The position numbers and the translations under genes are program-made. This document shows positions 3,069-25,285 of a stretch of DNA of 64,000 nt, piece by piece; position 1 is the first letter of the stretch; the number at the start of each line of letters is the position of its first letter. This stretch comes from a virus, in IMG/VR virus record IMGVR_UViG_3300045988_039227, positions 1 through 64,000 of that record. One strand, written 5' to 3'. The notes under the pieces are model-generated. The model did no database searches, was not told where the DNA came from, and saw only the letters and a program-made list of their open reading frames with translations.

Positions 3069-3161
3069 AACTATTATGTTTATGGTTTCTTTCCCAGGTA
3101 TATTGGTTCGTGAGAATAGGTATACCATTATGTGTGATTACTAATCAAACATTATATAATT

Positions 3162-6480: not shown

Positions 6481-6554
6481 GGACTTGTAGCTCAGCAGGT
6501 TAGAGCAACAGACTCATAATCTGGAGGTCCTAGGTTCAAGCCCTAGCTGGTCCA
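6481..6554 (+). tRNA. tRNA-Met(CAU): tRNA-Met (anticodon CAU; an Ile2-type lysidine tRNA is not excluded)
   Basis: Hand-folded cloverleaf. Acceptor GGACTTG/CTGGTCC; D stem GCTC/GAGC; anticodon loop CTCATAA (CAT at 6515-6517); T arm CTAGG-TTCAAGC-CCTAG; discriminator A. Confidence 0.85.
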
Positions 6555-6625
6555 CAATAGATGATTCCGTATATCTATAAATCCCGGATAGTTAACATTT
6601 GTTAAATCTCTAATAAATTATCAAA

Positions 6626-8727: not shown

Positions 8728-9222
8728 ATTCCTATATATTTTTAGCCATGTTTTAAGCGCTCTGAGGCAGAGTATGTCACCAAGTGGAGTAATTAACCAC
8801 GAGTGTCGCAAAAATGTCTTAGAGCGCACCTGAAACGGCTTAAACCGAATGTTCTGACTGATCATCGGAACATTTACAAGAATGTACAGTGTGTATGAAA
8901 TAATCTGTTTGGACAGGGGTTCGACTCCCCTCACGTCCACGGTTCCTCCTCTACGCTATTGTGTAGACTCCCTTTGGGCAACCTAGGTATGTTGTAAAAC
9001 TACCTACACGGGCGTGTTTGGTTTTGACAGACAGAGGAGATAAATACATTAAGCACTATACTATAAATTAAACGACAATGTAAATAACATTGTAGACTAT
9101 ACTAACGTAGCGTAAGTTTAGTCTAGGTGTTTCCTACCAAAGTGGAGAGAAGAAAGAAGTTGGTACCGTCGCCTTTTTGGTTTGGGTCTGGGGTTCGATT
9201 CCCCAGCTTCTTCCTATTAGTT

Positions 9223-10201: not shown

Positions 10202-10759
10202 ATGGAGTATCAGCGTATCACTCAATCTGAGATTGAGACCATAAAAGAAGCTCAAAAGGGAAATGAGCTTGCGTTTAATAAATTGTTTAACCGTTACAAA
10301 GAGTTTATTGACAACGTACTCTTTTGTTACGTGAATGACATGGATGAAGCTAAGGATCTTACAAATGTTGTATTTCTTAAGGTTCACCAAAAACTCTCGA
10401 CATTCACAGATTATTCGTCTTTTGGCGGATGGCTGAGAATTATAGCTAATCGAACAGCTATAGATTATCTACGAAAAGTAAAGGAAAAATCAATGGAATT
10501 AGGAGAAGATTCAGGCCGACTACCTGTTGAATTAACTAATTCTTCAGAAGAAGAGGATCTTGTCAATCTTCTTGAGTACGAATCTCTTCTAAAGGAGTTT
10601 GAAAAGCTCCCAAAGAAGACACAGAAGATTTTTAATTTATTCTACGTAGAAGATCTTACAGTTGATGAAATTAGCAAAGTGCTAAAAATTCCTACAGGCA
10701 CTATAAAAGCTGCGTTAAGTCGCACTCGTAGGAAAATTAGAAATAACTTAAAAGTTTAA
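10202..10759 (+). CDS. ECF-type RNA polymerase sigma factor (sigma-70 regions 2 and 4), 185 aa
   Basis: Region 2-like: DEAKDLTNVVFLKVHQKLSTF...FGGWLRIIANRTAIDYLRK. Region 4 HTH-like: LPKKTQKIFNLFYVEDLTVDEISKVLKIPTGTIKAALSRTRRKIR. Confidence 0.85.
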   Translation: MEYQRITQSEIETIKEAQKGNELAFNKLFNRYKEFIDNVLFCYVNDMDEAKDLTNVVFLKVHQKLSTFTDYSSFGGWLRIIANRTAIDYLRKVKEKSMELGEDSGRLPVELTNSSEEEDLVNLLEYESLLKEFEKLPKKTQKIFNLFYVEDLTVDEISKVLKIPTGTIKAALSRTRRKIRNNLKV

Positions 10760-12738: not shown

Positions 12739-12839
12739 TACGGCCAATTAAGAAAGCTAGTTCACAACTAGTTGGTCGTGTTAAGAAAGCCTTCGATATC
12801 CAGTGGCAAAGTGAACGCAAATAATTTAACTATCAAAGT

Positions 12840-13241
12840 ATGAAAAAATTAGTAATTACGTTGCTAGGAGCAGCATTTCTTACTATTGGCATGAATATTG
12901 CCGATCTTAAGAATGTTCCCCTTCCAACGACAGTGCAAACAGTAGCAGCATCTACTGTACAGCAACCAATGGATCATTTATTTGGTCAAGTGAATCGTGC
13001 TAATCCTGATACAGTGCATGATACCGTTAGGGTAGAAAAGCCTGTAGCTTGTAACCATAAACAGTCGCCTGTAAAGACGATTGTTAAACGCACCATAATT
13101 AAGAAGACAGATACGTCGTATGTACCACTTCTGTATATTATGGAACCTGGAGAAAAGGTCGACTCCACTAATCACAACTCTACCATTCGTAAGGGAGAGC
13201 TCCGTGATTATATTCAAATCGCCTCTAATGTATGCAAGTAA
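12840..13241 (+). CDS. secreted or signal-peptide protein, 133 aa
   Basis: N-terminus is MKKLVITLLGAAFLTIGMNIA. Confidence 0.6.
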   Translation: MKKLVITLLGAAFLTIGMNIADLKNVPLPTTVQTVAASTVQQPMDHLFGQVNRANPDTVHDTVRVEKPVACNHKQSPVKTIVKRTIIKKTDTSYVPLLYIMEPGEKVDSTNHNSTIRKGELRDYIQIASNVCK

Positions 13242-15367
13242 ACATAAGAACCCTGTATACCATAATTAGGTAAGTACATATAGTAGATCCCATTAGTCTA
13301 CGTACGAATATTAACTGGATCCGAGAATATGTTAACCCTGTCTTGCAGGGCGAGATCACTCAAAAGGTAGGATGAAATGTATCAAACATTGAAACAGTTT
13401 GATATAGGTAGGAGAAGCGTTGTATCAGCTCCTATAATTGCACAGCTGGACTTGTGAGAACCGTCTGGAGACAAGCTGGATGAGGCTGAATACACCTTAA
13501 AAAGATGTAGTGTAATTAAAAACGCATAAGTCCCAAGAAGGGCGTAATGAACCGTATCGTAATTATATGTGATAATACTAAGCATATACAAACGTTACAC
13601 GAGACGAACTATGTTGGTCCCCAGTAGGTGAACAGAATTGCATACATGGTATGGTGCATGGTGCTGGAAGAACCGAGGATACCCCAAACAACATAGAAGT
13701 ATTATTAGCCGTAGGTAGTGTTTCTAGTGTCCAAAGCTAGTATAAAGGCCGAAAAACTGCATCAATACTGTGGGAGTAATACCACACAGAGTAAACTAAA
13801 TGAGTTTGCTGACTATACCAAAACCTTACTGTTCGATTCAGTACAACTCCGTTGAAGGGGTGCCAGGGATGGGGTAGAAGTGTCTGATTGCGACCGCCAG
13901 GCTTTTCTTGTTTATGCGGTATATAAAAGTGAAACAAGCACAAGGGTTGGGCAGTCCCTTAATCGAAGCTCTACGGGAGTATCGTACGCGGGTGAAGATC
14001 GCGGTGAAAATCTATTCCAGTTATAATTAGGATGTTAGGCCATCCGAACTTATAGCCAATTTCCATGAAAATTAAATCGTTCATGAGATTATGATCGATG
14101 ACTCCGTTACAGTCAAAGAAAGTTGATGGAGAGCTATCCTAGAATAAGAAATAGCAAAAGCAGGTAGAAAGTTGATTCGAGATATATCCAGCCAGGATCG
14201 TTTGACCTCCACTTTCATCCAAAACGATTTAGACTAATAGTTTATTTGCACTATGATATACAATATTACATAGTCTCTACAGAGTAGTAAGCTGGTATAT
14301 TATGTATGCGTATGTTGTATGCAAGAGATATAAGCTATGAAAATCTAGAAAGTTTAAAAGATAACATGTTTAACAAAAATTGATGTCCCTTCATAGAGTG
14401 GATCTTACGTTGTAAGTAAGGGCTTGAGGTGAAGAAATCGAGTGCCAACCGATATGCCAACCATGCTAAAGTGTACTGCGCAACAGTATATGTAAACATA
14501 AAGGTTCGAAGCAATACAGGAAATTAATGGGCAGCTTATATTCTATGTTGTAAAACGACTGTGTATATTATATGTGTATACTGTCTCTATACATGTATAT
14601 TACGTTTATAAGTGGGTGACAAGATGAAATGTATGGGTTGAATTCCCAATATTCGTGCACTATAAATAGGAGGTAGTAATACCGGTACAGAAAAATTGCA
14701 AATATCAGCAAAGATACAAAAAGCCGTAAAGTCTGTGATGGGTTTGATCCTGAGACGTTCCGATAACCAACCGCTGGGTACATGCCATAAGCCGAGTACC
14801 GCAGTAAGGAGACCTAGCTGACAGTCGCTTCTAAGTTAGCAGTAGAGATCATCTGCTTTAATGACAATCGTGTAGGAATATCTTGTAAGTATAGTAAGGG
14901 AAATACGACCGAGATTCTACATATTTTCGTGGGTTATAAAGATTCTATGATTCTATGAGTGTTAGTTGCTCTGCAAAATTTCACCAACGAAGATTAGAAT
15001 AGTTAAGTTAGATAAAAACGTGAACAAAATAGCAGAAAACAGTTCAGCATTTGATTATGCAAAGAAAGCATTCAAAGCTTTAGACGATGGGCCTGGATAA
15101 TCCAGTAAATGTTAATTGCATCTTATGTATGTAATTCCTGTCACAAGCCTATTACCCTATTGTTGTAATAGGAAGAGTGTGACTAAGTCTATTAAAAGCG
15201 TCTACAATAGTAGAACTTTCTTTAGAAACTAAGTAAGCAAAAGCAGTAACCAAGTATCTTCGTATCAGCGTTGCTTTATTCAATAAACAACGGCAAAGGT
15301 GTAGCCAAAATACACCATATTTTTAAAATCATATCGTTAGTTAATCAATAACGATATCAAAAAGGAT
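13242..15367 (+). ncRNA. 2.1-kb ORF-free region, candidate large structured ncRNA(s) and/or replication/regulatory region
   Basis: There is no + strand ORF of 60 aa or more, and the three short - strand ORFs look spurious. Sampled local GC reaches about 45-53 percent. Hairpins include CCCTG-TCTTG-CAGGG (13335-13349) and GGTGAA repeats at 13990-14010. A perfect T arm TACTG-TTCGATT-CAGTA lies at 13826-13842. A conserved-loop hairpin lies at 15245-15275. Confidence 0.4.
15245..15275 (+). repeat. conserved-loop hairpin, copy 4
   Basis: Loop AAGTATCTTCGTATCA is closed by AGTAACC/GCGTTGCT: 7 bp with one G.T pair and one bulge. It lies about 100 nt upstream of ATG 15368. Confidence 0.55.
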
Positions 15368-15961
15368 ATGATTATGTCAGAAATTAATGTAAACATCGTG
15401 GAAACAACAATTAAGTCAAATCGTACCCCACTGAGTATTCTCGGTGGCAAAATGTTTGGTCAGGACGTATTTACTCCTCAGACCCGCTTCTTTAACCCAG
15501 ACCATGATAAGGTCTTGGAGCAGGCTAAGCAGAATTCTAACGTAGACCTTGTGCTCAATCGTTCTCCTCGCCGTTTCGCGATCGGTTATATCACGATCGA
15601 GTCTATGGCGACCAAGCAGAATGCAATCGGTGATGTCGTTTGCCGTCTTAATGAGGGCACAGACCATCAGATTGATATCCCTCTCGGTGAGAGTAGCACC
15701 AAGTTTGGTGAGACTACTGAAGAGGCAGTTCAGAAGGCTCTTAAGGACAAGAACTCTAAGGCAGTGTTCGCAGACCCTAAGGATCTGTGTGGTATCCTTA
15801 ATGACCTTAACCGCGGTGAGATCACTCGCCTTGACGGCATTATTGAGAAGGCTCAGAAGGCTAAGGCGCAGTGCTTGTCTGCCATCGCAGCAAATGAGAA
15901 GATCGTCGCTGATTATGAGCGCGAGAAGGCAGAGTCAAAACCAGCTGATCATATAGCATAA
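15368..15961 (+). CDS. hypothetical protein, 197 aa
   Basis: ORF track. Confidence 0.7.
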   Translation: MIMSEINVNIVETTIKSNRTPLSILGGKMFGQDVFTPQTRFFNPDHDKVLEQAKQNSNVDLVLNRSPRRFAIGYITIESMATKQNAIGDVVCRLNEGTDHQIDIPLGESSTKFGETTEEAVQKALKDKNSKAVFADPKDLCGILNDLNRGEITRLDGIIEKAQKAKAQCLSAIAANEKIVADYEREKAESKPADHIA

Positions 15962-25181: not shown

Positions 25182-25285
25182 GGGAAGTTAGTCTAATGGT
25201 AAAACAAGGGCATTGATAGATTGGAATGTGTGCAAGCTTAAAAGAAACACTACCCTGCTTATCGGTTCGAATCCGATACTTTCCA
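25182..25285 (+). tRNA. aberrant tRNA-like gene, 104 nt, with a roughly 35-42 nt insertion in the anticodon region
   Basis: Good acceptor GGGAAGT/ACTTTCC; U8 A9; D arm GTCT-AATGGTA-AAAC; perfect T arm ATCGG-TTCGAAT-CCGAT. I found no 5-bp/7-nt anticodon arm, so isotype and anticodon cannot be assigned. Confidence 0.45.

Follow-up and report, generated by a model that had tools for sequence, protein, structure and literature searches.

The 64,000-nt stretch of viral DNA analysed here (positions 1 to 64,000 of the IMG/VR virus record IMGVR_UViG_3300045988_039227, hereafter the window) belongs to Burzaovirus (Suoliviridae, "delta" crAss-like phages, abundant in the human gut), and its gene-free gap at 13242-15367 almost certainly holds a large structured RNA element that is genuine. 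The crAss-like phages cr124_1 and cr7_1 (Burzaovirus, Oafivirinae, Suoliviridae) share 91% identity with the region. With moderate confidence we interpret positions ~13283 to ~15325 of the plus strand as the gene for a highly structured non-coding RNA (ncRNA) of ~2.0 kb, specific to Suoliviridae and conserved throughout the family, that would act in trans as an architectural RNA. The element is probably one transcription unit; the trans-acting architectural mechanism, proposed by analogy, is tentative. The RNA represents a new, very large, previously undescribed class in Suoliviridae crAss-like phages. A first-pass annotation, made from the letters of the window, had suggested for this gap either large structured RNA or an origin or regulatory region; the structured RNA is supported by conservation in homologs and by covariation above shuffle and slide controls, both of which are strong.

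The gap had been described in that annotation as free of open reading frames (ORFs), with stops in all frames, and so it proved. Its longest start-to-stop ORF has 71 aa, its longest stop-free run has 82 codons (91 +/- 20 in shuffles of the gap sequence), and each of the six frames contains 12-27 TAA, 9-17 TAG and 6-17 TGA codons. Reassignment of stops had to be considered, since the late genes read TAG as sense; with any single stop codon (TAA, TAG or TGA) taken as sense in the six frames, no run exceeded 131 codons and no gene was rescued, and a recoded gene was rejected.

Comparison with 35 relatives, 86-98% identical in this neighbourhood, showed that the gap DNA is non-coding and under purifying selection. 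Diversity over the three codon phases is flat in the gap (0.038/0.049/0.042) and strong at the third position in the flanking genes (up to 0.08-0.21, with 0.01-0.05 at first and second positions; one example is 0.054/0.030/0.205). Thirty of the 35 distinct indel events in the gap are not multiples of three, 22 being single bases. Identity to the window is 93-98% in the gap and 86-97% in the flanking genes, and the mean nucleotide diversity of the gap, 0.043, is below that of three of the four flanking genes (0.033-0.097).

In homologs of the region, minus-strand open frames of 120-209 codons recur with apparent protein similarity, and some are annotated as coding sequences (CDSs). We attribute this similarity to nucleotide conservation and to the purine-rich plus strand of the gap, which makes stop codons scarce on the complement. 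The minus-strand CDS of Bohxovirus, the sole annotated one tested, is spurious: it is intact in two of eight close relatives and frameshifted in the other six, and its codon-position diversity is almost flat (0.038/0.058/0.066, compared with 0.011/0.004/0.100 in a neighbouring gene). This test, the absent periodicity and the indels ruled out a minus-strand gene. The reading as a decayed pseudogene, or as a protein gene masked by recoding or frameshifting, could appeal to the sense reading of TAG in the late genes of this phage and to the frames of 150-200 codons on the minus strand of some homologs, a few of them annotated. It is excluded by the abundance of all three stops in six frames, the lack of 3-nt periodicity with indels mainly of 1 nt, a conservation higher than that of most neighbouring genes, the fit of the long minus-strand frames to the composition of the plus strand, and the Bohxovirus result, which also runs counter to the intact homologous protein gene that the first-pass annotation had named as the mark of a pseudogene.

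A 44-aa ORF at 14966-15100 was rejected as well, despite a hint of third-position variability: a 1-nt indel breaks it in cr124_1, a stop does so in cr130_1, and a covarying hairpin lies there. The public records inspected leave the locus empty or fill it with spurious short CDSs. Hypothetical proteins annotated inside it are cr7_1 gp52 (L002 4378-4860) and Bohxovirus ECCNAKDA_00150 (L039 4709-5215), cr109_1 gp34 (L165 6012-6449), cr10_1 gp22 (L164 2865-3050) and about a dozen tiny CDSs in Dulem virus 42 (L041 3971-5979).

A gap of the same size separates orthologous genes in Chuhaivirus, Cacepaovirus, Bohxovirus, Buhlduvirus and Dulem virus 42 and, reached via an invariant 17-mer, in Loutivirinae (cr53_1, cr109_1), Bearivirinae (cr6_1) and Boorivirinae (cr10_1). 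Altogether, 29 sequence clusters from four Suoliviridae subfamilies (Oafivirinae, Loutivirinae, Bearivirinae and Boorivirinae) have an ORF-free gap of 2.0-2.9 kb, in which the 17-mer sits 190-440 nt from the start, between an upstream ORF of ~130-150 aa and a downstream ORF of ~190-230 aa, both on the plus strand. The distance from the 17-mer, named M2 below, to the downstream ATG is 1770-2073 nt across lineages, and the RNA takes up ~2% of the ~100-kb genome in each lineage examined.

Five IMG/VR loci (L045, L057, L067, L083 and L088) turned out to be chance matches to the 17-mer, with the motif inside ORFs, no other motifs, no stem and no match to the covariance models (CMs) described below, and were therefore used as negative controls. 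Across 185,579 species-representative genomes of bacteria and archaea, a two-block pattern matched three times, each time on a phage-sized contig, so that no cellular homolog was found in this set. The three contigs sit in bins of metagenome-assembled genomes that are GTDB representatives, L286 and L288 (Segatella copri, ~101 kb) and L287 (Bacteroidaceae); this binning is a hint at the hosts of Suoliviridae and a sign of phage contamination in such bins. A metagenome scan added 120 loci, with the 5' domain found in 53 of the 95 tested, and many metagenome contigs from beyond the human gut also carry the RNA.

In cross-genus alignments, invariant blocks alternate with hairpins whose stems differ by lineage and keep their complementarity. 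From 18 Oafivirinae-type clusters we took one representative apiece (50-60% identity to the window), folded their alignment with RNAalifold and compared the result with 14 conservation-matched column shuffles. The consensus energy of the plus strand is -263.7 kcal/mol, compared with -92.5 +/- 7.2 kcal/mol in the shuffles and -220.3 kcal/mol for the minus strand, which points to the plus strand as the one that folds. G-U pairs also outnumber A-C mismatches (492:130 in the RNAalifold alignment and 145:39 in a second count), as expected if the plus-strand RNA folds, although both methods favour G-U to some degree. Well-paired pairs with both sides changed number 106 (9.1 +/- 3.7 in shuffles), and supported helices 21 (0.7 +/- 0.8). 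Compensatory changes are seen even among genomes more than 90% identical (CCCTG/CAGGG versus CTCTG/CAGAG; TTCAT/GTGAA versus TTTAT/GTAAA) and within the species, at 14703/14716 (T-A versus C-G).

The hairpin around M2 allowed a test that is free of any alignment method, in which the flanks of the loop from 33 representatives, chance matches included, were stacked without gaps. Covariation in the stem was 0.627, compared with 0.216 +/- 0.035 after shuffling (reached in 0 of 500 shuffles) and 0.14-0.22 in slid registers. The closing stem is different in almost every lineage: CTTGT/ACAAG, GTCCAT/ATGGAC, TGTAATAT/ATATTACA and GGAAGT/ACTTCT, and in further lineages CGTTATT/AATAACG, GGCCTT/AAGGTC and CCCT/AGGG.

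For the 5' domain alone, MAFFT with RNAalifold recovered two helices only, as the variable hairpins were misaligned, and this approach was replaced by three CMs with curated structures. They were seeded solely from the species-level cluster of the window (the R1 seed also included L053, 79% identical), so that the other lineages are independent tests. The results for each model are as follows.

R1, 13313-13480, 32 bp: matches 28 of 29 real clusters and 0 of 5 control loci; cells paired 90.2% (60.6 +/- 1.2% shuffled); cells with both sides changed 230 (68 +/- 7); covariation 0.604 (0.167 +/- 0.012, 0 of 500 shuffles reaching it; slid 0.07-0.12); compensatory change in 30 of the 32 pairs.
R2, 14380-14540, 26 bp: 13 matches, each ~1 kb 3' of an R1 match; cells paired 98.6% (84.8 +/- 1.2%); both sides changed 37 (9.5 +/- 2.4); covariation 0.357 (0.155 +/- 0.015, 0 of 500; slid 0.03-0.06).
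R3, 14608-14768, 34 bp: 18 matches, collinear with R1 and R2; cells paired 90.9% (80.6 +/- 1.0%); both sides changed 52 (18.9 +/- 3.7); covariation 0.269 (0.129 +/- 0.012, 0 of 500; slid 0.03-0.09).

The slid controls of the three models are 3-8 times below the observed covariation. At each locus the matches are collinear and on one strand, with a spacing of 937-1068 nt from R1 to R2 and of 228-348 nt from R2 to R3. Searched outside Oafivirinae with filters off, R2 gave E-values of 0.01-0.26, with five of the seven matches correct in strand and placed 1.1-1.26 kb 3' of R1.

These comparisons show dozens of predicted helices kept by compensatory substitution, at least six locally closed domains, variable linkers, and invariant loops and junctions. 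The parts of the RNA are listed in order.

13283..13301, plus strand: hairpin P1, GTAGAT/GTCTAC with loop CCCATTA (consensus TCTCATTAG), the first conserved element.
13313..13480, plus strand: 5' domain (CM R1), with helices P2-P5 and a hairpin with the 15-nt M2 loop.
13361-13374, plus strand: invariant block M1, in the 5' domain.
13455-13471, plus strand: invariant block M2 (TGAGAACCGTCTGGAGA), a hairpin loop.
13481..13905, plus strand: domain II, multi-helix; RNAalifold helices 0.84-1.00 canonical, with 2-6 covarying pairs each; collinear motifs in 18 clusters.
13551-13559, 13644-13654 and 13897-13905, plus strand: invariant blocks M3, M5 and M6 of domain II.
13772-13783, 13790-13810 and 13827-13843, plus strand: hairpins of domain II, the first with a GTAA tetraloop and the last T-loop-like with a covarying stem.
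13904..14018, plus strand: domain III, a 13-bp hairpin at 13904-13941 and a hairpin at 13991-14018 with two GGTGAA copies.
14019..14379, plus strand: AT-rich linker, 0.34 GC, with low cross-genus conservation; holds the TATGTATGC repeat.
About 14099-14115, 14186-14198 and 14268-14305, plus strand: covarying hairpins of the linker (RNAalifold).
14380..14540, plus strand: central domain (CM R2), five helices, with invariant blocks M8 at 14440-14451 (GAGTGCCAACCG) and M9 at 14527-14535 (ATGGGCAGC).
14575..14593, plus strand: hairpin TGTATA/TATACA between the central domains; canonical 0.90, six covarying pairs (RNAalifold).
14608..14768, plus strand: 3'-central domain (CM R3), seven helices, with a GTAA-tetraloop hairpin at 14672-14683 and invariant blocks M10 at 14612-14623 and M11 at 14650-14663.
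14769..15046, plus strand: variable segment, hypervariable at ~14790-14940; holds the GATTCTAT repeat and the start of the non-conserved 44-aa ORF.
15047..15219, plus strand: 3' domain, with hairpin GCAT/ATGC at 15047-15060, a closing helix 15077-15081/15195-15199 and inner helices.

According to RNAalifold, the helices of domain III are 0.89-0.90 canonical with 4-5 covarying pairs (the stem CTTGT/ACAAG is replaced by GTAGT/ACTAC and GTCGT/ATGAC), and those of the 3' domain are 0.83-0.94 canonical with 2-7 covarying pairs per helix. The two GTAA (GNRA-type) tetraloops and the T-loop-like hairpin are motifs typical of large folded RNAs. The latter is the T arm TACTG-TTCGATT-CAGTA of the first-pass annotation, which had placed it one base away; a tRNA-like reading of this place was rejected, as it shows no cloverleaf, U33 is missing from the adjacent 7-nt loop, and ARAGORN and the Rfam tRNA model both gave no match. 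The repeats reported earlier are all present: GGTGAA in two copies (13991-13996 and 14004-14009), TATGTATGCGTATGTTGTATGC at ~14302-14323, and GATTCTAT twice at 14941-14956. The claim of GC enrichment over neighbouring genes stood in part: 300-nt windows reach 0.45 at 13600-14050, while the whole gap has 0.377 and the flanking genes 0.39-0.49; the AT-rich part is 14.05-14.65 kb.

Two motifs occur twice within the RNA, GATGAAATGTAT at 13371-13382 and 14623-14634 and the GTAA-tetraloop hairpin GGKAGTAATACC at 13772-13783 and 14672-14683; they may be traces of modular duplication or recurring modules for tertiary contacts. Among genomes more than 90% identical, diversity rises to 0.08-0.13 in three hypervariable segments (~13740-13890, ~14790-14940 and ~15090-15240), with 0.01-0.04 elsewhere, and entire hairpins there are swapped for different, still-pairing sequences (for example, the cr7_1 and cr124_1 alleles), which suggests expansion-segment-like or diversifying regions. 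The 15-nt M2 loop (GAGAACCGUCUGGAG) loosely resembles the region of the 23S rRNA sarcin-ricin loop, which we take to read AGUACGAGAGGACCGGAGUG, and is an unverified lead only. By-eye inspection of two long-range pairings, one between the M2 loop and M6 and the other between the P1 loop and an AATGAG block of the R3 domain, revealed no consistent covariation.

The borders of the locus are formed by the following elements.

12840..13241, plus strand: upstream flanking gene, 133 aa, with a signal-peptide-like N-terminus; left syntenic border of the locus in all subfamilies.
15298..15325, plus strand: terminator-like hairpin GGTGTA-GCCAAAA-TACACC (15298-15316) followed by ATATTTTT; the sole such plus-strand site within 12875-15600.
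15331..15367, plus strand: leader hairpin ATATCGTTA-GTTAATCAA-TAACGATAT (15331-15357) with the ribosome-binding site (RBS) ATCAAAAAGGA; canonical 0.99, six covarying pairs.
15368..15961, plus strand: downstream flanking gene, 197 aa, with a long helix at the C-terminus; right syntenic border of the locus.

As the first conserved element, P1 sets the minimal 5' boundary of the RNA. It is present across Oafivirinae, 10-98 nt 3' of the upstream stop codon, and both sides of its two outer pairs are changed in 5-7 of 16 lineages. The 3' end likely coincides with the hairpin and T-run at 15298-15325, judging from their sequence, and in most Oafivirinae lineages a stable hairpin, different in sequence, stands 50-75 nt ahead of the downstream ATG. 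No internal plus-strand terminator-like site was found within the RNA, and promoter-like matches (14, compared with 9.9 +/- 3.4 in shuffles) are not above chance.

The leader hairpin is probably a separate cis element of the downstream gene, outside the large RNA, and may be a translational operator or leader element. It is found family-wide, in four subfamilies, directly before the start of the 197-aa gene, with a GGTnnATCAA loop and a covarying stem (ATCGTT/AACGAT, TCCGTA/TACGGA, TTTCGTG/CGCGAAA). The first-pass annotation had counted it as the fourth copy of a hairpin with a conserved loop. The hairpin is indeed present, but the copy number was borne out in part only: this exact hairpin occurs once in the window, and one similar hairpin, with a TAATCAA loop, precedes another ATG at 3131-3158.

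We propose that the RNA would be transcribed with, or processed from, an early/middle operon starting near the sigma-like factor gene at 10202-10759, and that transcription would mostly stop at the hairpin and T-run at 15298-15325. The product would accumulate as a stable, compactly folded RNA and act in trans during infection, neither as an mRNA leader nor as an origin. Through its invariant loops it would engage in RNA-RNA contacts, tertiary or quaternary, or in binding of a partner, either a protein or the ribosome, as proposed for GOLLD and ROOL. A bolder version, possible but doubtful, sees in it a single compact particle of ~2 kb, the largest non-ribosomal structured RNA known from bacteria or phages, with a function lacking precedent among phage RNAs and essential to the most diverse family of gut crAss-like phages. 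One possibility for that particle is a ribosome- or translation-directed machine or decoy tied to the switch to TAG as sense; another is a self-assembling RNA compartment.

Several observations weigh against the proposed trans-acting RNA of ~2.0 kb. Its function is assigned entirely by analogy, and both ends, the abundance and the processing of the RNA are presumed. Strong confirmation of the central and 3' domains is confined to Oafivirinae, the R2 matches outside this subfamily being individually weak. Fitting to a CM biases an alignment towards the model structure and towards G-U pairs. Two long-range helices proposed by RNAalifold join invariant blocks without covariation, and no long-range covarying helix links the 5' and 3' halves, so the element could be several adjacent RNAs. 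Conservation of the T-run behind the 3' hairpin does not extend to every lineage. In some lineages P1 begins only 10-14 nt past the upstream stop codon, which makes a dedicated promoter doubtful there, and co-transcription would make a cis role conceivable.

The locality of the structure would fit several independent small or medium ncRNAs in fixed order (for example, six of 150-450 nt): the supported helices are local or close domains of 150-450 nt, distant domains have no covarying link, the linkers between domains are AT-rich and poorly conserved, and three segments are hypervariable. We nevertheless regard this arrangement as unlikely, for domain order and the spacings given above are kept across genera, the total length is constant, and the domains co-occur wherever tested; internal terminator-like sites are lacking, and promoter-like matches do not rise above shuffles. 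The collinearity of R1, R2 and R3 at kept spacing, together with the lack of internal terminator-like sites, favours one unit. Quite unlikely, too, is a giant cis-acting leader or attenuator, a structured transcript that would govern how the replication-module genes further downstream (197 aa, 194 aa ... DNA polymerase) are read through or translated. The element is co-oriented with these genes and directly upstream of them, a terminator-like hairpin stands just before them, some lineages leave no room for a dedicated promoter, and the conserved leader hairpin and RBS come next. Known cis-regulatory leaders, such as riboswitches, T-boxes and put/nut RNAs, measure tens to a few hundred nucleotides, however, and 2 kb with more than 50 helices outsizes them; with invariant loops spread across 2 kb, a globular fold is suggested more than a switch, and control of the downstream gene, which possesses a separately conserved leader hairpin of its own, can be explained without the large RNA.

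The replication origin put forward by the first-pass annotation as an alternative found no support, and we judge an origin or primer-RNA region, where a pre-primer transcript like ColE1 RNA II or folded single-stranded DNA nucleates initiation, very unlikely. The locus does adjoin the replication module (annotation of cr273_1 and cr109_1 places DNA polymerase and helicase downstream), is AT-rich in part, and has hairpins that could form in single-stranded DNA too. Yet no iterons, direct-repeat arrays or tandem repeats were found, and the cumulative GC skew has its extreme at ~30 kb, where gene orientation flips, and does not inflect at 13-15 kb. Wobble G-U pairs are frequent and differ between the strands, the GNRA tetraloops and the T-loop are RNA motifs, and 2 kb of covarying structure is far above any known origin. 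A catalytic or mobile RNA, that is, an ORF-less self-splicing intron, a twintron or a new large ribozyme, is highly improbable. Group I introns are numerous in delta-group crAss-like phages (PMC7886860), and the size and invariant junctions are ribozyme-like; on the other hand, group I and II introns, RNase P and small ribozymes gave no match at E<=10, nor at the gathering score in 12 other lineages, no gene is interrupted (the flanking ORFs are complete, each with its own stop and start), and the position is fixed in four subfamilies, unlike that of sporadic mobile introns.

Around the locus, a sigma-factor-like gene at 10202-10759 (PHROG 1740, E=1e-25) lies three genes 5' of the RNA, a synteny kept in all subfamilies, and its product may direct transcription of the operon holding the RNA. 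The 133-aa protein has a hydrophobic N-terminus in the alignment consensus and looks membrane-targeted; neither it nor the 197-aa neighbour has a relative in Pfam, PHROG or among PDB sequences, and they give no partner or functional clue for the RNA. Homolog searches with the neighbouring proteins returned close relatives in nearly all cases, and the AlphaFold2 model of the 197-aa protein is unusable (pLDDT 55, pTM 0.30).

The early region with the RNA also carries a transfer-messenger RNA (tmRNA) and unusual tRNAs. The tmRNA, of the permuted (two-piece) type with tag peptide DNVNNIVDYTNVA, is at 8880-9115 (ARAGORN 8850-9206), ~4 kb upstream of the RNA, and a tmRNA is also present in Bohxovirus (L039 112-301). 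A tRNA-Met lies at 6481-6555. The tRNA-like gene at 25182-25285 (Rfam, 40.9 bits) was missed by ARAGORN and has an anticodon-loop region of 42 nt instead of 9, that is, it carries an insertion or intron. In the minus-strand late and structural genes (29561-63074) TAG is sense, with ORFs of 5162, 2301, 1576, 536 and 497 codons that appear solely when TAG is read through, whereas the early and middle genes of the plus strand use the standard code; given these TAG-sense late genes, the tRNA-like gene at 25182-25285, whose anticodon was not resolved, could be the candidate suppressor tRNA.

The RNA offers a new target for RNA structural biology, such as cryo-electron microscopy of RNA-only or ribonucleoprotein particles, and a way into the infection biology, so far poorly understood, of Suoliviridae that are uncultured, and the three CMs can serve as a marker for finding these phages. 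It also corrects phage genome annotation, the locus being unannotated or mis-annotated in all public records inspected and absent from Rfam 15. Should the RNA turn out to act on translation or to form a compartment, a new chapter of phage RNA biology would begin.

With the 4227 families of Rfam 15, a scan of the window at the gathering score gave no match in the region, nor did the 12 other lineages at that score; a scan of 12800-15800 at E<=10 gave a sole permissive match, CRISPR-DR65 (E=0.97), which was discarded as chance. The RNA is not a member of GOLLD, ROOL, OLE, HEARO, raiA, RNase P, tmRNA, rRNA or group I/II introns. This agrees with the first-pass annotation, which saw no likeness to RNase P, tmRNA or intron cores, and, as far as the Rfam models go, answers in the negative its suggestion of the GOLLD and ROOL class, as well as of HEARO and raiA. 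No description was found in the literature, including crAss comparative genomics (PMC7886860) and a survey of structured RNAs of the human microbiome (PMC8040213), in a search that left most subscription journals outside; the paper on UG/Abi reverse transcriptases and a 2026 preprint on S. copri crAss phages do not describe the element.

Structured RNAs of mobile elements that serve replication or packaging, such as the ColE1 RNA II-type primer transcripts and the phi29 pRNA, have 120-550 nt. The present RNA is likewise a structured RNA of a mobile element and adjoins a replication module, but no homology to them and no origin features were found. OLE is an ornate RNA of ~600 nt with many conserved helices and highly conserved nucleotides (PMC9723947). 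The present RNA shares the ornate architecture with many conserved helices; however, OLE is chromosomal in Gram-positive extremophiles and anaerobes and works with dedicated Oap proteins, whereas the RNA described here is phage-specific and does not match it.

The closest likeness in kind, by analogy, is to GOLLD and ROOL, both of them large and ornate RNAs encoded by phages and without a known function, which assemble into RNA-only nanocages and are often found near tRNA islands (PMC12286853). ROOL, with a 659-nt example and thought to act without protein partners (PMC12286853), is also a large ornate RNA of phages and prophages with unknown function, but the present RNA is about three times longer, belongs to another phage group and does not match the Rfam model. 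No tRNA directly adjoins it: the nearest are 1-7 kb off, 1-3 kb downstream in some lineages and, in the window, 4-7 kb upstream (tRNA-Met, tmRNA). As to homo-oligomeric nanocages, no consistent palindromic kissing-loop signature was seen by eye. GOLLD has many members exceeding 800 nt and combines a conserved part with a more variable one (PMC12286853). Like GOLLD, the present RNA is phage-encoded and large, came to light through covariation, and has many helices, invariant loops and variable linkers; it differs in its length of ~2.0 kb, in the absence of a sequence or structure match to the Rfam model, and in its carriers, which are Bacteroidota-infecting crAss-like phages and not the Lactobacillales, Mycobacterium and marine phages of GOLLD. 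If the length of ~2 kb is true, the RNA would be more than twice the size of GOLLD and would exceed all three classes of ornate bacterial and phage RNAs considered in PMC12286853.

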